Shown here: positions 3,004-38,201 of the stretch, in pieces
Layout: each line of letters begins with the position of its first letter
Position numbering within the stretch: the first letter of the stretch is position 1
Assembly: GCA_965116225.1 (NCBI GenBank)
Contig: OZ220495.1
Span: 2,261,405 to 2,325,404, forward strand
Reading direction: 5' to 3'
DNA length: 64,000 nucleotides
Source of the DNA: Dehalococcoidia bacterium
GTDB taxonomy: Bacteria > Chloroflexota > Dehalococcoidia > Bin125
Translations under genes and position numbers: made by a program
The notes under the pieces: generated by a model
What the model was told of the DNA's origin: nothing
Databases searched by the model: none
What the model saw: only the letters and a program-made list of their open reading frames with translations

Positions 3004-4956
3004 CTAGACGTTGTTCTTCCAGATCCGCTCAGTGTTGGTCGCGCCCCAGCCCGGGTTCCATGCGTTGTACGTGTCCATCTGGCCGAACAGGTATTCGCGC
3101 CGTGCGGTCATGCGGTACGGATTGACGCAGAAGATGCGCCACATGTTCTCGAGCTCCCGCACGCGGATCTGCTCGAGAATCTCGGATCGCTTCTCAACAT
3201 CTAGTTCCTGTCGTTGTTCGACTGTCCACCGGTCCACATCCGAGTCATTGATGCCGTAGATGTTGCCTGGGCTCTCGGAGTGCATGCGGCCATAAGCCAG
3301 ACCGTCGGCATCCATCTCACTGCCGACCAGCCAAGTGAACAGAGTGTCGCTGTACTCCTTGGTGAACAGGAGAGATAGCCAGGATTCCCACTCGATCTGC
3401 TCGTGCTCGATCTTGGCCCCAAGGTTCCGGGTCCATTGGTCTACGACCAGCAGGAAGTGATCGAGGTAAAAGCCGGGTACCGTGTGGAACGCTGCTTTGA
3501 ATGACAGCGGATTGCTCTCGTTGAATCCAGCGGCGTCGAGCAGCTTGCGTCCCTCGGCGGCGTTGAAGATGTGGAAATCGCCCAACTCTTCGAAGGTCCA
3601 AGGCCACTCACGGAACCCCCAAGGCGATCGCTCGTCCCTAAAGAAGGTCCAGTTCTGACCATAACCGCCGGCGGCAAGGCCGTAGTAGACACCGGCTGCC
3701 TGCTCGTCGCGGTTCATGCCGAGCGAGAGCGCTTGCCGAACACGGGGGTCATTGAATGGCTCGGCGGTCAGATCCTTGAAGGTCATGTGTGGCTGCCAGC
3801 CGGGCGGCGGTGCCGTGACCTGTACGACCATGTCAGGGTGCTGGTCGATTGCGCGGTCGTACTCGGTGATGTCTTGCAGCCGAATCCAGTCGGTCTCGCC
3901 GGTTTCCCAGGCTGCCCACTCGGACTCACGCTGATTGGCGAAGTCGAGCCCATGAATGTTGTCGATATACGGTAGTTGCATGCCCGTGCGAGGGTCGAGT
4001 TTGTGGTATCCGGGGTGCCGACTGCCGCGCCATTCCGAACCGGTGGTTGCGCTGTCGAGTTGGAATGGGCCTGTGCCGACTGTGTTCTCCGCCAGGTCGA
4101 GCAGGCTCGGCTCCTCAACGAACTCCGGCGCAATCACCGTGTGGAATGGGTTCATCATGTTATTGAGTAGATACGCGGCCGGCTCCGACAGATTGAAGCG
4201 GACGCTGTTGCTCGAATTGTCGTAGTCGATCGACTTGACAGCCGTGTACGAAGACGCCTGTACGCGGCCTTCCTCGCGTAGGGCGTCATAGGCGATCTTC
4301 ACGTCCTCCGCGGTCATGGCGCGACCATTAACAGGCGGCTTGTCCTGCCAGGTGACGTTGTCCAGGAGTTGGAAGACCACTGTGGTCGGCTCGGGAATTT
4401 CCCACCCCACGGCGAGGTCGCCCTCGTTGATGTAGTAGTGGGCGTTCGCATAGTCGTCCATCGGGAAGACAACCAGCTGACTGTAGAACATCGGTGCGAA
4501 GGCGGCCATGAGGCTGGCGTTCGGTCCCAGCACATTCCAGTTCGCCGGCGCGGAGTGCGCGAGGGTCCAGGTGCCGCCGTACTTGGGGCCGTCGGCCTGA
4601 CCGGGGAGGTTCTGCAGCTTCGACCAGTGGTACCGCAGGCGCCACTCTTCTTCGGGCGTTAGCGACATTGCCTCTTCTTCAGCGGTCAGCTGACCGGGCA
4701 GCAGCGCGACTGCCTGCTCGTCGTCGGCCTCTTGCTGTGTAGGGGCTTGTTGCGTCGCCGCCCCTTGCGCTTGCTGCTGCGCCTGCTGCTGTTCGGGCTG
4801 TATCTGCGCGGCGGCCTGCTGGTCGTCGTCGTCATCGCCGCAGCCGACCAATGCCAGACCCGCCGCGCCGACGCCGGCTCGCGCCGATGCGGAGATCAGC
4901 GAGCGGCGGCTCAGCCGCTTGCGCTGCATTCGCTTCCAGTAGTTACGTTCCGACAT
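3004..4956 (-). CDS. ABC transporter substrate-binding protein, family 5 (peptide/nickel/oligosaccharide), Tat/lipoprotein-type signal
   Basis: 650 aa. N-terminus has RRSLISASARAGVGAAGLALVGCGDDDD (twin-arginine plus lipobox-like Cys) followed by a Gln/Ala-rich linker and an SBP_bac_5-like body. Confidence 0.8.
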   Translation of the reverse strand: MSERNYWKRMQRKRLSRRSLISASARAGVGAAGLALVGCGDDDDDQQAAAQIQPEQQQAQQQAQGAATQQAPTQQEADDEQAVALLPGQLTAEEEAMSLTPEEEWRLRYHWSKLQNLPGQADGPKYGGTWTLAHSAPANWNVLGPNASLMAAFAPMFYSQLVVFPMDDYANAHYYINEGDLAVGWEIPEPTTVVFQLLDNVTWQDKPPVNGRAMTAEDVKIAYDALREEGRVQASSYTAVKSIDYDNSSNSVRFNLSEPAAYLLNNMMNPFHTVIAPEFVEEPSLLDLAENTVGTGPFQLDSATTGSEWRGSRHPGYHKLDPRTGMQLPYIDNIHGLDFANQRESEWAAWETGETDWIRLQDITEYDRAIDQHPDMVVQVTAPPPGWQPHMTFKDLTAEPFNDPRVRQALSLGMNRDEQAAGVYYGLAAGGYGQNWTFFRDERSPWGFREWPWTFEELGDFHIFNAAEGRKLLDAAGFNESNPLSFKAAFHTVPGFYLDHFLLVVDQWTRNLGAKIEHEQIEWESWLSLLFTKEYSDTLFTWLVGSEMDADGLAYGRMHSESPGNIYGINDSDVDRWTVEQRQELDVEKRSEILEQIRVRELENMWRIFCVNPYRMTARREYLFGQMDTYNAWNPGWGATNTERIWKNNV

Positions 4957-9241: not shown

Positions 9242-10330
9242 TCAGTACCTTAGAGCCGCCCAGCCGCCCAGCACCAGGCTTGCGTCAATGCCGATTGTCT
9301 CATGGAATCCGATCATCCCGATCGCGCTGACAGCAAGGTAGCCCTGTAGCTCTGGAAGGTCCAGGATCGAAAACAGCAGATCGCCTTCGAGGATTCTGAG
9401 GGATAAACGTGATAATCCAGCCAACCGTGCCCAGCTCGATGTCGTGGCCTGAGTCTTCGATTGCCGCTTGCGTTGGCTTGACGAGTGCCGAGTTCAGCGT
9501 AAGCACGGCGGCACCTCGCCTTGAGCCAACCGGTCGGCGATCATCGTCTCGACTTGGTCGAGATTGGATAGCCCGGCCTGGTCGACTCGCAGGCGCTCGA
9601 CCGTTCCGCTGTAGGCGGTCTCCGCATGATCGCAGCGTTTTTCGAGACCCACATGGGCGGCTTCGTAAGTAACGCAGATCAAGGTCCCGGTCAAGCCGGC
9701 GTCAGCGAACGCCCGCCCCGCCATGTCGCCGGTAGCCGGATCGTCGAGACCGACGTGTTTGAGTTGCCATAGTCTGCGCCCTCCGAAGCGCCTGAATTGA
9801 AGGTGGCGATCTGTACGCCCGCCTCTCGAGCCGCGACGATAGTTGGTCCCACCACGTCTGGAGCAGCCAATGTCGTCCCAATCACCGCCGCGCCATCGGC
9901 GACGCACTTGTTGATCAGCTCGGCCTGCGCTGTGGGCGTTGCGCCCGACTCAACCCGCAGGTTCATCCTGAAGTCCGAAGCGGCCTCCTGTGCTGCGATA
10001 TGCGCGAGCCTCCAGAACTGCAAGTCCCCCGGCGTTCCATGATCGATCAGACAGACTAGGTCGCCGTCCAGGAAGAGTCCGGCCCGATGTTCACAGCACC
10101 GAACTATGCAGCCAGTCGCCTGGCTTTGCGTTTGCCGGCACGAACCGGGTTGCCGCCAGCAGCCGCTCGCCCCAGGCACCGCCCGCCTCGCGCTGTTGCA
10201 GCGCGACTTCGACATCGCCGTCGGCTTGGCGCTGCGCCACAATGCGCACTTCGCCGCTACCGATGTGATTCGCCAGCACCACGCTCAGCAGGAGTCCGAT
10301 CCCTACGCCGGACAGCAACATGCCCGCCAT
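9242..10330 (-). pseudogene. Decayed periplasmic sugar-binding protein (PBP1/RbsB-like ABC SBP) broken by several frameshifts
   Basis: Signal-peptide ORF (10091..10330, MAGMLLSGVGIGLLLSVVLA) followed in other frames by SBP-like segments (LIDHGTPGDLQFW...AELINKCVADGAAVIG...VQIATFNSGAS; ...LRVDQAG...; ...ELQGYLAVSAI...). These are split over at least four reading frames, and no permease or ATPase genes lie adjacent. Confidence 0.5.
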
Positions 10331-27589: not shown

Positions 27590-30211
27590 TTGGACGCTTG
27601 CATGGCCGGACCGTTGGACGGACTCGTCGCACTGGACCTGACCAGCGATGTCGCCGGTCCCTACGCAACGAAGCTGCTGGCCGATTATGGCGCGCGCGTG
27701 ATCAAGGCGGAGCCGAGGGGAGGCGATCCGTCGCGGCGCGCGGGCCCCTTTCCCAATCAGGTCGAAGACATCGAGGCTTCGGGACTCTTCCTGCATCTGA
27801 ATACCAATAAACAGTCGATCGTCCTCGATCCGCATACCGATGACGGCGCCGCGACGGTGCGTCGGCTGGCGCGCGTCGTGGACGTGGTCGTTGAAGACTT
27901 GCGCCCCGGCGACGCTGAGACCGCCGGTTGGGGCTGGGACACGCTGCATGCGATCAACCCCAGGCTGGTGCTGTGCTCGATCACCCCGTTCGGACAAACG
28001 GGTCCGTATCGTCACTACCGCGGTTCCGAGCTCGCCATGCAGGCGATCGGCGGGCCGCTCCACGCGACCGGCGCGGCGGATCGCGAGCCGGTCAAGCTGG
28101 CTGGACATTACGCCGGCTACCATGCGGGCGCGACGGCGGCGCTTGCGATCCTATTGGCGCTCAAGCGAATCGACGCGGATGCGGGCGCCGGCGATTGGGT
28201 CGATATCTCGATCTACCGCTGTCAGGCGGGCTGCCGCGATCGGCGCACGATTCAACTCGTGTCGGCGGAGTACAGCGGGGTCGCCCCTGGTCGAGCGCAG
28301 CCGACCCGCCGCCTGGTGGGCTTCGGGATGTACCCGTGCGCCGACGGCTTCGTGAACATCGTCGGCTCCGGTACCCGTATGCCGAGGCTGATGCGCTGGA
28401 TCGGCAGGGAAGATCTGCTGGAGGACGAGGATTACCTCGCTGGGCCGCGGCCGGGCTCCGGATTCGGCGCGCGCGTCGATGCGGCGATCGAGTACCACCT
28501 CAGGGGGTTGAGCAAGGTGGACGCCGTGGCATCGGCGCAGGCGGCCGGATTGTTGGCGGGCGCGGTGATGACGGTGTCTGACGTGCTCAACGACCCACAG
28601 CTGACCGCCCGCGACTGGTGGCACGAAATCACCCATTGGCACGGCGAGCCATTGCCGTACCCGGGTTTCCCGTTTCGGATGAGCGAGTCGCCGCCGTCGA
28701 GACCCAAACGTTCGCCGAGGCTCGGCGAACACTCCCGCGTAGTGCTCGACCTGACACCTCCCGATCCGTTGGAAGACATGCGACATCCCGTGCCCGAGGG
28801 TCCCTCCAGCTCGCTGCCGCTTCCGCTGGAAGGCGTCAGGGTCGCTGCGATCACCGTGGTCTGGGCCGGCCCACACGTCACCCAGCTGTTGGCTGAGTGG
28901 GGGGCGGATGTGATCAACGTGGAGCCGATTAATCGGGTCCAGCCCTACACCCGGGGCGCCGAGAACGTGCAAACTCGGGAAGCGATGCTGCGCGGTGCCG
29001 CCATCGGCGTCCAGCCGCAATACCCGGACGCCGAACCGGGCGATGAACCCTGGAACCGTTTCGCCTCATTCAACTCGCACGCGCGCAACAAACGCTCGAT
29101 GACCTGCGACATCATGTCTCCGCAAGGCAAAGAGGTGTTTCTCAAACTGATCGAGCAGTGCGATGTCCTGGTCGAGAACAACGTGCCGACCACGATTGAC
29201 AAGGCGGGGATCGACTGGGAGACGCTGCAGCAGATCAATCCGCGACTGATCATGCTGCGCATGCCGGCGTTTGGGCTCGAAGGCCCATACTCGTCCTATC
29301 GCGCCTTCGGCTTGCACGTCGAGGCGATGGTCGGGCATACGCACCTGCGCGGCTATCCTGATCGCGGCCCGGAGGGCATCGGCGAGACGTTGGCGAGTGA
29401 TGGACTCTCCGGTGTCCAGGGTGCGTTGGCGGTGATAATGGCGCTGCGGCATCGTGAACGCAGCGGCTTCGGTCAGATGATCGAGATGCCGCTCAATGAG
29501 GGCTTCATCCCGACCCTGGCGGAGTATCTCTTCCAGTACGCCATGAATGGTGTCGATCCGCCGCCACAGGCGAACACGCACGCGCATCGCGCGCCGTACG
29601 GCGTTTATCCCTGTCGCGGCGACGACCAGTGGATTGCCATTGATGTCTCATCCGACGCTGAGTTCGTCGCGCTCTGCGCCGCGCTGGCGGCCGGCCCCGG
29701 CGACGCGACCGTGCAGTCGGAGCTGGCTCACGCGCCGTTGGACACGCGGTTCGCGCAGGCCGCGGTCCGCAAGGCCAATGCCGCCGCGCTGGACCAGCTG
29801 ATCACCAGCGAAACCCGCATCTGGCATAAGGAAGACCTGTTCCACAAACTGCAGCAGGCGGGCGTCTGCGCCGCCCCGCTCAATGATCCGTTCGACGCGC
29901 TCTCGGACCGACATCTGCGCGAGGTGGGTTTCTTCGAGCAGATGACCGTGGATGGCGTCGGCACGCATCGGTATCCTGGTCTGACCTTCACGATGAGCCG
30001 CACGCCGAACCGACTGCGCACGCCGCCGCCCAAGCTGGGCGAGCACAATCGCGAGATCTACTGCGACCTGTTGGGCTACAGCGCCGAAGAACTGGCCCAA
30101 TTGGAAGAGATCGGGCTCGTCGGTACGGCATATCCCGACGAACTGCTGCCGCTGCACGCAAGACGATCCGTTCAGGCAACCGAACAGTCGCGACAACGAT
30201 CGGAGGACTGA
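27590..30211 (+). CDS. Tandem-fused family III CoA-transferase (two CaiB/BaiF-type domains in one 873-aa polypeptide)
   Basis: First domain LVALDLTSDVAGPYATKLLADYGARVIKAE...; second domain from about aa 415 VRVAAITVVWAGPHVTQLLAEWGADVINVE.... No stop codon between them. Confidence 0.75.
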   Translation: MDACMAGPLDGLVALDLTSDVAGPYATKLLADYGARVIKAEPRGGDPSRRAGPFPNQVEDIEASGLFLHLNTNKQSIVLDPHTDDGAATVRRLARVVDVVVEDLRPGDAETAGWGWDTLHAINPRLVLCSITPFGQTGPYRHYRGSELAMQAIGGPLHATGAADREPVKLAGHYAGYHAGATAALAILLALKRIDADAGAGDWVDISIYRCQAGCRDRRTIQLVSAEYSGVAPGRAQPTRRLVGFGMYPCADGFVNIVGSGTRMPRLMRWIGREDLLEDEDYLAGPRPGSGFGARVDAAIEYHLRGLSKVDAVASAQAAGLLAGAVMTVSDVLNDPQLTARDWWHEITHWHGEPLPYPGFPFRMSESPPSRPKRSPRLGEHSRVVLDLTPPDPLEDMRHPVPEGPSSSLPLPLEGVRVAAITVVWAGPHVTQLLAEWGADVINVEPINRVQPYTRGAENVQTREAMLRGAAIGVQPQYPDAEPGDEPWNRFASFNSHARNKRSMTCDIMSPQGKEVFLKLIEQCDVLVENNVPTTIDKAGIDWETLQQINPRLIMLRMPAFGLEGPYSSYRAFGLHVEAMVGHTHLRGYPDRGPEGIGETLASDGLSGVQGALAVIMALRHRERSGFGQMIEMPLNEGFIPTLAEYLFQYAMNGVDPPPQANTHAHRAPYGVYPCRGDDQWIAIDVSSDAEFVALCAALAAGPGDATVQSELAHAPLDTRFAQAAVRKANAAALDQLITSETRIWHKEDLFHKLQQAGVCAAPLNDPFDALSDRHLREVGFFEQMTVDGVGTHRYPGLTFTMSRTPNRLRTPPPKLGEHNREIYCDLLGYSAEELAQLEEIGLVGTAYPDELLPLHARRSVQATEQSRQRSED

Positions 30212-35192: not shown

Positions 35193-35273
35193 CGTAATCC
35201 GCCCCTACGCTGTCGCGCCCGGGCAGACCGGAGCGTGTATCCGGGGGATCAGACGCACGGAAGGAGGAGCGAG

Positions 35274-36278
35274 ATGCGACTGGGAATATTGGCTGGCTTC
35301 AGCGCCGACTGGCGCGACACGCTGGAGAAGGTGCGGATCGCTGAGGACCTCGGCTACGAAATAGTCTCGACCGGCGAGGCGTGGGGACACTCGGTGTTGC
35401 CCTGGCTCACCGTGATCGCCGCGAATACCGAGAAGATCCAGATTGGGACCGGCATCCTGAACACGTTCTCGCGCACGCCGGCAGCGATTGCGCAGGAGTT
35501 CGCGACGCTGGAAACGATCTCGGGAGGGCGAATGGTGTGCGGGCTGGGGTCGTCGGGGAACTTGGTGATCGAGGGGTTCCACGGTGTCGAGTTTGACCGA
35601 CCGTTACGGCGAATCCGCGAGTACACCGAGGTTATCAAAATGTTGCTGCGCGGTGAGCGTCTGCACTACGAGGGCGCTATCTACAATTTACAGCGCGGCT
35701 TCCGTCTGTTGGGCTACGAACCGGTGCGCGAGAATCTGCCCGTCTGGATCGCCGCGATCACGCCGCGTTCGATCCAGCAGACTGGCGAGATCGCGGACGG
35801 CATCTATCCAATTCACTGGCCCAGGCGCGCCTTCGAACCGCTTAAGCGACAACTCGTTGGCGCCTCGCGCGACGCCGCCCGAGCCGAGGATTCAGTCACG
35901 ATCGCGCCGTTCACCAATGTCTACGTGACCGGCGAGGGTGACGACGAACAGGTCTGGCGCAACGCCCGCCAGCCGCTGTTCCACTACACCAACCGGATGG
36001 GATCGTTCTACTGGCAGATGCTCTCGCGTTCCGGCTTCGAGTCCGAGATCAACGAGTCCCGCGCAGCCTGGGCCGACCGCGACTCCGAGGGTGCGCTGAT
36101 GGCGTTCTCAGAGAGCATGGTCCGCGAGATCCAGGTGATCGGTCCGATCGGCTCAATCACGGAACAGCTGCAGGCGCGTTCCGAGGCCGGTGCCGAACTG
36201 CAGATGATCCCGCTGCCCTCCGGTACGACCGCAGAGGTCGGGCGTCGGCTCGAGCAGTACCTGGGCAGCTCAGTCTGA
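35274..36278 (+). CDS. LLM-class (luciferase-like) flavin/F420-dependent oxidoreductase
   Basis: MRLGILAGFSADW...LGYEIVSTGEAWGHSVLPWLTVIAANTEKIQIGTGIL is an LLM TIM-barrel N-terminus. GGAGGAG RBS upstream. Confidence 0.75.
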   Translation: MRLGILAGFSADWRDTLEKVRIAEDLGYEIVSTGEAWGHSVLPWLTVIAANTEKIQIGTGILNTFSRTPAAIAQEFATLETISGGRMVCGLGSSGNLVIEGFHGVEFDRPLRRIREYTEVIKMLLRGERLHYEGAIYNLQRGFRLLGYEPVRENLPVWIAAITPRSIQQTGEIADGIYPIHWPRRAFEPLKRQLVGASRDAARAEDSVTIAPFTNVYVTGEGDDEQVWRNARQPLFHYTNRMGSFYWQMLSRSGFESEINESRAAWADRDSEGALMAFSESMVREIQVIGPIGSITEQLQARSEAGAELQMIPLPSGTTAEVGRRLEQYLGSSV

Positions 36279-36293
36279 CTGAGTGCTCGAACG

Positions 36294-36545
36294 ATGTCCG
36301 AGCGGCGGATCGCGATCGAAATCGTCTACTGCGCCGACTGCGGCTACTGGCCCCGCGCGGCCTGGATGCTTGGCGAGCTGATGACCGATATCCAGCATCT
36401 GGTCTCGAACGTCACACTGATCCCCGACACGAGGGGATTGTTCGAGTGGTCGATCGACGGCGAACTGGTCTTCAGCAAGGCCGCCATGGGTCGCTTCCCT
36501 GACATGGATGAGCTGCGCGAGTTGATCTACGCTCGGCTCGACTGA
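36294..36545 (+). CDS. Rdx/SelW/SelT-family thioredoxin-fold protein (Cys form, CxxC)
   Basis: IAIEIVYCADCGYWPRAAWMLGEL...GLFEWSIDGELVFSK matches the Rdx family with a CADC redox motif. Confidence 0.7.
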   Translation: MSERRIAIEIVYCADCGYWPRAAWMLGELMTDIQHLVSNVTLIPDTRGLFEWSIDGELVFSKAAMGRFPDMDELRELIYARLD

Positions 36546-36558
36546 GCCACAGACCGAG

Positions 36559-37146
36559 TTGTTCGGCGACAGGAGTGGAACGGTGGTCGAGACGGTTACA
36601 GTACTGAGCCCACTCGCGCATGTTGCCGTGCGAGAGGCGACGCCGGCGTCGCGACCTACATCCCTCGACGGGCTTCGCCCCGGCATCCTCGAAAATCGCA
36701 AAGCGAACGCTCGACTACTGATGGAGACCATGGTCGAACGACTCGGCGAACGCTTCGATCTCGGGCCACTGGTCGTCGGCAGCAAACCGGTTGGCGGGCC
36801 GCCGACCGATGCGACCATCGACGCGTTGCGCAACGGAGCCGATTTCCTGCTCATCGGCAGCTGCGATTGAGGTAGCTGCACGACGTGGAGTGTCCACGCC
36901 GCTGTCCTGTTTGAAGAGCTGGGTATCCCGACAGTCACGGTCGGCACATCGGCCTTTACCGATTTGCTACAGCTGGAAGCCGAACAGCGCGGTCTGCCGC
37001 AACTCGACCGCCTGATCGTGCCGCATCCGCTCGGCGGCCTGCGTCCCGATCGCGTACGAGCGCGGGTGGACGACACCGTGTTGGATCGGCTCGAGTCCGC
37101 CCTGCTCGGCCAGGCCGGTCGAGCTGGACGGGCGGTTGCCTCGTGA
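36559..37146 (+). CDS. UGSC-family selenoprotein; in-frame TGA at 36868-36870 read as selenocysteine (...LLIGSCD-U-GSC-TTW...)
   Basis: Six-frame ORFs 36559..36870 and the downstream frame-continuous ORF ending 37146 are joined by a single TGA. The residues after the TGA are G-S-C, giving the eponymous U-G-S-C motif. Hairpin cgtgga-gtg-tccacg lies 14 nt downstream of the UGA. The stop at 37146 overlaps the next start (GTGA). Confidence 0.6.
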
Positions 37147-38201
37147 CGACGCTTCAGGGCCGCGAAGCCGATCGGTTCACATTGCCCTCTGACCCGTTCG
37201 ACTTTTCCCAGGAGTGCATCCGCCGCGGCTGGTCGGACGGCTTGCCGCTGATTCCACCGACACCTGAGCGCGTCGCGACGATGCTTGCAGCCTCAAACCG
37301 CGACCCGCTGGAGGTGTTGGGCGTGCTCGCACCGCGACAGGGCGAGGCAACGGTACAGGCAGTCGCGATCAACGCCGTCATGGCTGGTTGTCGCCCGCCG
37401 CAATTCCCGATCGTGCTCGCCGCGGTCGAGGCGCTTGCCCAGCCGCTATTCAATCTCGATGGCATCAACGCCACGACGCATCCCTGCGCGGTGTTCGTGC
37501 TGGGATCTGGACCGATCGCGCGCGCGGCAGGCATCCACGGCGGCTCGGGCTGCTTCGGACCAACATTTCCCGCCAACGCCACCATTGGCCGCGCTGTCCG
37601 ACTGTCCCAGCTCAACATTGCCGGCGCGACGCCCGGTCGCGGCGACCGCGCTACCCAGGGCACGCCGGCCAAATTCACCTTCTGCGCCAGCGAGCGCGAG
37701 GACGCCTCGCCGTGGCCGCCGTTTCAGACCACTCGCGGACTCAACGTCGAGGACAGTTGCGTCACCACTTGGGCCTGCGAAGGTCCGCACAACATCCAGG
37801 ATCATGGCAGCAACACCGCTGCCGGCATCCTGCAGACCGTCGCCGGCGCGATGGGTCAGGCGGGCTCGAACAATATTTTGGGCAAGGGCGAGCCGCTGCT
37901 TGCGTTCGGGCCCGAGCACGCCGAGACTGTCGCCTCCGCAGGCTGGACCCGCGAGTCCGTCCAGGAGTATCTTTGGGAGCACGCGCGCTATCCCGCCAGC
38001 AAGCTCAGCGACGAATTCCTCGAATCCGTCAACATCCGCATGGCGGGCGGCATCCTACCGACGCACGGTACCGACGAATCACTGCCGATCTCCGACAGGC
38101 CGGAAGAAATCCACATCATCGTCGCTGGCGGCCCCGGCAAACACTCGTCATGGATGCCGACGTTCGGCGGTACGACGCGCCCCGTCACCATTCGGTTGTA
38201 G
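37143..38201 (+). CDS. Conserved hypothetical protein (352 aa), translationally coupled to the UGSC selenoprotein gene
   Basis: GTG 37143 overlaps the upstream TGA. Gly-rich soluble protein with no recognisable motif by eye. Confidence 0.5.
   Translation: MTTLQGREADRFTLPSDPFDFSQECIRRGWSDGLPLIPPTPERVATMLAASNRDPLEVLGVLAPRQGEATVQAVAINAVMAGCRPPQFPIVLAAVEALAQPLFNLDGINATTHPCAVFVLGSGPIARAAGIHGGSGCFGPTFPANATIGRAVRLSQLNIAGATPGRGDRATQGTPAKFTFCASEREDASPWPPFQTTRGLNVEDSCVTTWACEGPHNIQDHGSNTAAGILQTVAGAMGQAGSNNILGKGEPLLAFGPEHAETVASAGWTRESVQEYLWEHARYPASKLSDEFLESVNIRMAGGILPTHGTDESLPISDRPEEIHIIVAGGPGKHSSWMPTFGGTTRPVTIRL

Follow-up and report, generated by a model that had tools for sequence, protein, structure and literature searches.

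The 'UGSC-containing protein' was named in 2007 as a selenoprotein without an assigned function (PMC1976440), and in the Global Ocean Sampling (GOS) metagenomes UGSC was among the most abundant selenoprotein families, with 255 selenocysteine (Sec) forms, 21 cysteine (Cys) forms and a UxxC motif (PMC2398784). The GOS paper also described a UGSC fusion to a domain called 'Unknown_1', guessed at a thioredoxin-like fold, and recorded the UxxC motif in both UGSC and GrdB-type proteins (PMC2398784, Table 2). UGSC is defined as a selenoprotein family in both papers (PMC1976440, PMC2398784) and is still uncharacterised according to reviews of 2022 and 2026. Here we analysed a 64,000-nt stretch (hereafter referred to as the window) of contig OZ220495.1 from a Dehalococcoidia (Chloroflexota) genome, and found that positions 36583-37146 very probably form a single gene encoding a Sec-containing UGSC-family protein. 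Since the family was named in 2007 and is among the most abundant in the GOS data, the finding is the correct identification of a new member of an already-known selenoprotein family, one that gene callers truncate.

The in-frame TGA and the UGSC family

A sequence-only reading of this stretch had described two ORFs (open reading frames) in one continuous frame, parted only by a TGA at 36868-36870. The sequence confirms this: on the + strand the frame is open from 36526 to the stop TGA at 37144-37146, and its sole interruption is the TGA at 36868-36870. Reading through it gives ...ADFLLIGSCD*GSCTTWSVHAAV... (in a shorter view, ...LLIGSCD*GSCTTWSV...), in which the TGA, codon 96, is read as Sec and supplies the U of U-G-S-C. 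The earlier start at TTG 36559 did not hold. GTG 36583 is most likely the true start, because a Shine-Dalgarno-like AGGAG (36571..36575, + strand; read from the sequence) lies 7 nt ahead of it and because it aligns with ATG in 64 of 83 homologues; a GGAG-like motif also precedes this ATG in homologous loci. The corrected gene (36583..37146, + strand) comprises 187 codons plus the stop and, as had been proposed, is coupled to the next gene through a GTGA junction, where the GTG at 37143 overlaps the UGSC stop.

We searched the joined protein with the TGA position written as Cys, and it matched the Pfam UGSC family (PF24696) at 1.7e-40 and 139.4 bits (cutoff 25), residues 15-174 covering profile positions 2-163 of 172 and spanning the TGA. 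This bears out the proposal that reading the UGA as Sec recreates the U-G-S-C of the family. Like the described members, the window protein has a full-length hidden Markov model (HMM) match, U-G-S-C in place and the stand-alone size (~175-195 aa), and nothing essential differs between them. In a word-indexed protein search, three full-length homologues (P0001-P0003) carry D-C-G-S-C aligned to D-[TGA]-G-S-C, while closer homologues stop exactly at ...GSCD or ...GSSD, as expected from a gene caller at a Sec-TGA. Database proteins cut at exactly the TGA codon (P0004, P0005, P0149, P0152, P0234 and P0252) agree with the earlier expectation that ordinary gene callers would truncate the gene. Among the best 150 family representatives from an exhaustive HMM search of cluster representatives, 94 have Cys at the codon-96 column and four more end exactly there, and 82 carry C-G-S-C. 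The U thus aligns, as anticipated, with Cys in full-length homologues and, as described below, with Sec in GrdB.

We then compared the DNA of 83 related loci, comprising the DNA behind the word-index protein matches and 80 loci from species-representative genomes. Nearly all are Dehalococcoidia/Chloroflexota metagenome-assembled genomes (MAGs); the top protein identities reach 84-90%, the proteins overall are 45-90% identical, and the gene order of the window is common to these loci, including a tRNA-Ser(UGA) ~9 kb downstream. Of the 83 loci, 81 have TGA as codon 96, whereas two from a Caulobacteraceae MAG (L082 and L083) have TGC. The ratio of nonsynonymous to synonymous differences (pN/pS) is nearly the same before the TGA (0.30, codons 1-95) and after it (0.31, codons 107-178; 82 comparisons), and the most conserved motifs of the family (GSC, GIPTV and HPLGG) all lie after the TGA. 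The part downstream of the TGA is therefore coding and read through, as had been argued, with conservation continuing past the UGA in relatives.

These comparisons bear on the reading of the TGA as a genuine stop, which would make the locus a pseudogene or a sequencing error, or would leave only a 95-residue N-terminal fragment to be made. Gene callers do treat the TGA in this way (P0004, P0005, P0149), and no Sec machinery is visible in the window. However, the same TGA is kept in 81 of 83 loci, which stem from different species-level genomes and metagenomes, the 91 codons downstream are under purifying selection equal to that upstream, the Pfam match crosses the TGA, and the fragment would end one residue short of the family-defining motif, so that we regard a genuine stop as extremely improbable. 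Just as improbable is that two polypeptides are produced, one ending at the UGA and the other, the C-terminal part, initiated internally. An in-frame TTG at 36964 could open a 60-aa ORF, but codons 97-128, which precede it and hold the most conserved residues (GSC and GIPTV), would then go untranslated; no start codon or ribosome-binding site was found after the TGA itself, and the Cys-type homologues and fusions are single chains. Code reassignment is not the explanation either, since 22 of 60 called ORFs of the window end in TGA as their normal stop. Taken together, the equal selection on both sides, the downstream motifs, the stop/start overlap and the unreassigned TGA count decisively against a pseudogene, a sequencing error, two polypeptides or code reassignment, and in favour of a single gene read through its TGA. 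Five other candidate read-through TGAs were flagged in the window, and all proved to be ordinary stops between neighbouring genes in the same frame.

In public databases, this gene and its orthologues from dozens of Dehalococcoidia genomes appear as 95-residue stubs. The cutoff of NCBIfam model NF041046 ('UGSC family (seleno)protein', equivalog) excludes this clade, so the Prokaryotic Genome Annotation Pipeline (PGAP) would not name the protein through that model even with the Sec codon handled. As a consequence of the stubs and this cutoff, the selenoproteomes of abundant marine and sponge-associated bacteria are undercounted.

Several observations on individual relatives accompany this comparison. 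One Dehalococcoidia contig (L078) has two Sec-type UGSC genes, at 10274 and 12971, ~2.7 kb apart. Three loci labelled Phycisphaerales (L051), 'bacterium' (L053) and Vicinamibacterales (L054) encode UGSC proteins 62-65% identical to that of the window and keep the same 24-nt block described below; they are either mis-binned Dehalococcoidia contigs or cases of horizontal transfer. In ENA long-read contigs of 1x-4x coverage, single-base indels fall in the N-terminal region of the UGSC gene (L001 3335-3420, L002 ~10200-10260 and L003 ~630-700), and these low-coverage indels gave rise to the frame-shifted calls P0004, P0006 and P0007. A weak and unusual 'Terminase_3' call of 499 aa, located just upstream in L001, probably has the same cause.

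The hairpin after the TGA and probable selenocysteine decoding

The bacterial selenocysteine insertion sequence (SECIS) of the E. coli fdhF type lies in the coding sequence just 3' of the UGA, and the criteria for such elements (bSECIS) are an apical loop of 3-9 nt, an upper stem of 4-16 bp, a UGA-loop distance of 16-37 nt, an energy of -7.5 kcal/mol or lower, and a G within the first two nucleotides of the loop, as a rule with G or U after it (PMC13188914, 2026 review). The window has a predicted hairpin at the corresponding place (36881..36901, + strand). Its inverted repeat, CGTGGA-GTG-TCCACG (36884-36898), is separated from the TGA by 13 nt and folds into a 6-bp upper stem (36884-36889/36893-36898) with an apical loop GUG (36890-36892) that begins 19 nt after the UGA, and two extra pairs (36881-36882/36900-36901) form below an A.C mismatch. 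With a folding energy of -7.6 kcal/mol for the core and -9.5 kcal/mol for the extended form, the hairpin fits the consensus in every respect; it shares the G-U loop start of the bSECISearch consensus, and its 3-nt loop is the consensus minimum.

The strongest feature of this element is its invariance at the nucleotide level, which marks a 24-nt block, the SECIS core region (TGCACGACGTGGAGTGTCCACGCC; 36877..36900, + strand). When 83 Sec-type sequences are aligned by codon, the third positions of codons 99-106 (TGC ACG ACG TGG AGT GTC CAC GCC) have an entropy of 0-0.16 bits, compared with 1.2-1.7 bits at codons for invariant residues elsewhere (1.4-1.7 bits at, e.g., G92, T122, G137, L141 and G152). 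Likewise, the median synonymous difference (pS) from the window is ~0.6 on either side and 0.16 within codons 97-106. The two Cys-type loci (L082 and L083) have CTG GCC TGG ACC GTG CGC in place of the block and no hairpin. The block is thus held constant across the Sec forms and missing from the Cys forms, which places the constraint on the nucleic acid and confines it to genes whose codon is TGA. Compared with described bacterial SECIS elements it is unusually invariant, with 24 nt that scarcely differ among genes whose proteins share 45-90% identity, and binding of SelB to it is predicted.

Sequence variation within the hairpin is slight. All 52 distinct sequences can form the core stem, three of them with a G.U pair, and none of the rare variants disrupts the helix: two sequences have a GUA loop instead of GUG, three have G.U in place of one G-C pair, and six, among them all three G.U cases, gain a base pair through an A-to-G change. 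The second UGSC gene of L078 has the GUA loop variant together with a stem-extending G.

A number of results weigh against a Sec-containing UGSC protein with a SECIS hairpin, and we set them out together. The window protein scores 103 bits against NF041046, whose curated cutoff is 125. Several further clear members likewise score too low (P0001, P0003, P0128, P0132 and P0203, 111-123 bits), one passes (P0133, 139.7 bits), and the NCBIfam model is thus narrower than the Pfam family; the clade of the window is somewhat divergent from the NF041046 seed. The folding energy of the hairpin is not exceptional against dinucleotide shuffles (z = 0.41), and we dropped it as evidence because it carries no weight. 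There are no compensatory changes among the 52 distinct sequences, because the element hardly varies, and the fold is thus inferred rather than proven by covariation. An alternative helix of 4 bp is conserved almost to the same degree, with only two sequences breaking it, and pair counts do not decide against it. The earlier suggestion that 36884..36898 is a SECIS element is supported: its position, consensus fit and synonymous invariance speak for it, while the energy alone is unremarkable. As for the decoding machinery, Rfam and ARAGORN found only tRNA-Ser and tRNA-Leu in the 64-kb window and no tRNA-Sec, and ARAGORN found no tRNA-Sec in the 83 loci; NCBIfam scans of the 20 size-matched window ORFs revealed no SelA, SelB or SelD. 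Searches with tblastn of the window and the 83 loci (~1.5 Mb of flanks) gave no match either, a weak negative given the E. coli SelA/B/D queries used. The missing sel genes in the window and flanks show only that they are not linked to UGSC and are silent on the rest of the genome.

Some of these results could also fit a UGA that is read through as an amino acid other than Sec (Cys or Trp, by a near-cognate or suppressor tRNA), with the 24 nt promoting read-through or pausing instead of binding SelB. In its favour, no Sec machinery was found in the window and flanks, and the hairpin shows no covariation of the kind that would prove a specific fold. Against this stand the normal use of TGA as a stop in the window, the fit of the element to the bSECIS consensus in loop sequence and spacing, and the position itself, where homologues have the redox-active Cys of a UxxC motif and the aligned GrdB has its Sec. 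In addition, the family is defined as a selenoprotein family, and the class is documented as rich in Sec, with Dehalococcoidia MAGs encoding 46-49 selenoproteins in the BSepDB paper (PMC13326102). Even the neighbouring Rdx gene is itself in the Sec form (CxxU, in-frame TGA) in three loci (L046 ~2737, L049 ~4180 and L056 ~9782). Non-Sec decoding is therefore very unlikely in our view, and Sec remains the preferred reading of codon 96. In those three loci, two selenoprotein genes adjoin in one operon-like cluster.

Relationship to the Sec module of GrdB and PrdB

The selenoproteins closest to UGSC outside its own family are GrdB, GrdF, GrdH and PrdB (TIGR01917, TIGR01918 and TIGR04483), with which it has in common a Sec module of a beta-strand, U-G-(S/T)-C, a helix, GIPxV and PHPLG. 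The stretch around Sec in one UGSC member matched the model for glycine reductase selenoprotein B. Among 97 UGSC members, matches at E <= 0.01 went to TIGR01917 (GrdB) in 24, GrdF in 8, TIGR01918 in 7, PrdB in 7 and GrdH in 4, and no other family recurred. The best match of a UGSC member to GrdB/PrdB-type models had an E-value of 2.6e-5 and 23 bits (cutoffs 65-602), and the window protein itself did not match TIGR01918, TIGR01917 or TIGR04483.

A permissive tblastn search retrieved the same Sec-region stretch in the grd operon of Acetoanaerobium noterae. There, GrdB has an in-frame TGA after ...VDAVILTST, followed by GTCTRCGATMVKEIERAGIPVV...IPHPLGN, and when read through it scores 945.7 bits on TIGR01917 (cutoff 602). 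HHalign of the UGSC profile with this verified GrdB gave 94.8% probability (E = 5e-8, 68 columns) and paired GDCGSC with STCGTC (the first C is Sec in both, so that Sec falls on Sec), GIPTV with GIPVV, and HPLGG with HPLGN. These alignments show homology between the Sec module of UGSC and the one at the C terminus of GrdB/PrdB-type reductases. By the GrdB cutoffs, UGSC does not count as a GrdB-family member; in contrast to GrdB, it is without the ~330-residue N-terminal part and without the third Cys of UxxCxxC. We found no paper that states a UGSC-GrdB relationship, and the four papers that name both treat them as separate families. The A. noterae sequence comes from a chromosome-sized record filed as a plasmid (L084; NZ_CP154629.1, 'plasmid' pTPELB2, 2.63 Mb) with 4 features in the PLSDB table, where the grd operon, with its Sec-containing grdB (TGA 4046-4048) and a grdA-like ORF (2648-2977), is unannotated.

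Structure prediction for a UGSC homologue yielded a flavodoxin-like alpha/beta fold, with U-G-S-C predicted at the junction of strand beta3 and the next helix. The thioredoxin-like fold suggested earlier for UGSC (PMC2398784) was rejected. In a first AlphaFold2 (AF2) run on the UGSC-partner fusion P0106, with few UGSC sequences, the UGSC domain had a predicted local distance difference test (pLDDT) score < 50, and the run was discarded for that domain. Sequence searches of the PDB with the UGSC and partner profiles gave no match.

The partner gene and a possible two-component enzyme

The gene coupled to UGSC at the GTGA junction (37143..38201, + strand) encodes a 352-aa protein of an unannotated family. 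This partner adjoins UGSC in 83 of 83 loci, the Cys-type loci included (median identity 81%), and the 4-nt overlap of the two genes is present in 55 of the 71 loci with a callable partner ORF. UGSC-partner fusions account for 17 of the 150 top family representatives. Cys-form pairs occur further afield: in the haloarchaeon Natrinema zhouii the two genes overlap by 4 nt (partner identity 41%), and on plasmid pTHAF8_b of Roseovarius sp. THAF8 the order is partner, UGSC, trxB (partner identity 38%). The partner homologues in L085 (2373-3485) and L086 (4109-5161) adjoin UGSC. The partner family has more than 7,800 database homologues, of which the named ones are all 'hypothetical protein' and none has a Pfam domain; no recurring Pfam or NCBIfam match was obtained for the window partner or 43 members. 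A high-confidence AF2 model of the partner domain had no convincing solved structural relative. The partner has many invariant polar residues, including C181, H113, K177, E184 and D168 (numbered as in the window partner), which suggests that it is an enzyme. The domain named 'Unknown_1' in the 2008 GOS paper is probably this partner. One complete fusion of 565 aa (P0106, from an ENA contig) has Leu at the Sec/Cys position (..GTANLGSCTAWSVHA..) and keeps the Sec-type 'WSVHA'; the Leu may stem from an error in sequencing or assembly, or the protein may be a redox-dead variant.

These features allow a mechanism to be sketched. SelB carrying Sec-tRNA(Sec) would bind the hairpin on the translating mRNA, through the GUG loop 19 nt past the UGA, and insert Sec, after which the ribosome would continue to the GTGA junction and translation of the partner would be coupled there. 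The U96/C99 pair could cycle between selenol/thiol and selenenylsulfide at the strand-helix junction, making UGSC the redox-active or nucleophilic arm of a two-component enzyme in which the adjacent 352-aa protein may be the substrate-binding part. A thiol system would re-reduce the pair, with the neighbouring Rdx as a candidate here and thioredoxin reductase in Roseovarius.

More broadly, we consider it possible, if rather less than probable, that UGSC and its 350-aa companion form a widespread two-component selenoenzyme (Dehalococcoidia, Alphaproteobacteria, haloarchaea and elsewhere), in which UGSC would be a free-standing GrdB/PrdB-type Sec module and the companion a new substrate-binding or catalytic subunit. 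The partner has no detectable relationship with GrdE/PrdA or the N-terminal part of GrdB (HHalign < 1% for GrdE and GrdB), and the analogy with glycine and proline reductases therefore covers the Sec module only. Unlike in Grd/Prd operons, UGSC is not accompanied by GrdE/PrdA, GrdA or GrdC/D, and its neighbours in the window are Rdx, an LLM-class oxidoreductase and the 352-aa partner. If the idea is true, marine and largely aerobic lineages would possess, in this pair, a new branch of Stickland-type chemistry, in which bonds are cleaved reductively. The GrdB/PrdB homology, the flavodoxin-like fold and the constant unannotated partner make the function of UGSC experimentally approachable, and the Cys-form pair in cultured Roseovarius and Natrinema offers possible experimental hosts.

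Immediately upstream of UGSC, as the sequence-only reading had noted, lies a Cys-form Rdx/SelW-like gene for a small redox protein (36294..36545, + strand; C-A-D-C; PF10262 6e-20; TIGR02174 61.5 bits), which adjoins UGSC in 63 of 83 loci. SelW/Rdx proteins are small CxxC/CxxU redox proteins, and the one beside UGSC is in the Cys form in the window and most close relatives, in contrast to the three Sec-form loci above; the gene is distinct from UGSC, and its product, which has a thioredoxin-like fold, forms no part of the UGSC protein. Just upstream of Rdx is a gene for an F420-dependent LLM-class oxidoreductase (35235-36278, + strand; PF00296 5e-65). Only 26 of 83 loci have this gene within 3 kb of UGSC, which makes it a lineage-specific neighbour outside the conserved module. 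Genes for family III (CaiB/BaiF) CoA-transferases were observed within 10 kb of UGSC in 42 of 86 loci, in the window at 27590-30211 and also at L085 4-1209, L086 1-864 and L002 1-2598, Roseovarius and Natrinema included; these genes may be abundant genome-wide, so that their recurrence need not mean enrichment near UGSC. On the Roseovarius plasmid pTHAF8_b, the thioredoxin-disulfide reductase gene trxB (L085 4204-5184) stands directly downstream of the partner-UGSC pair, an adjacency that fits a thiol-dependent redox cycle.

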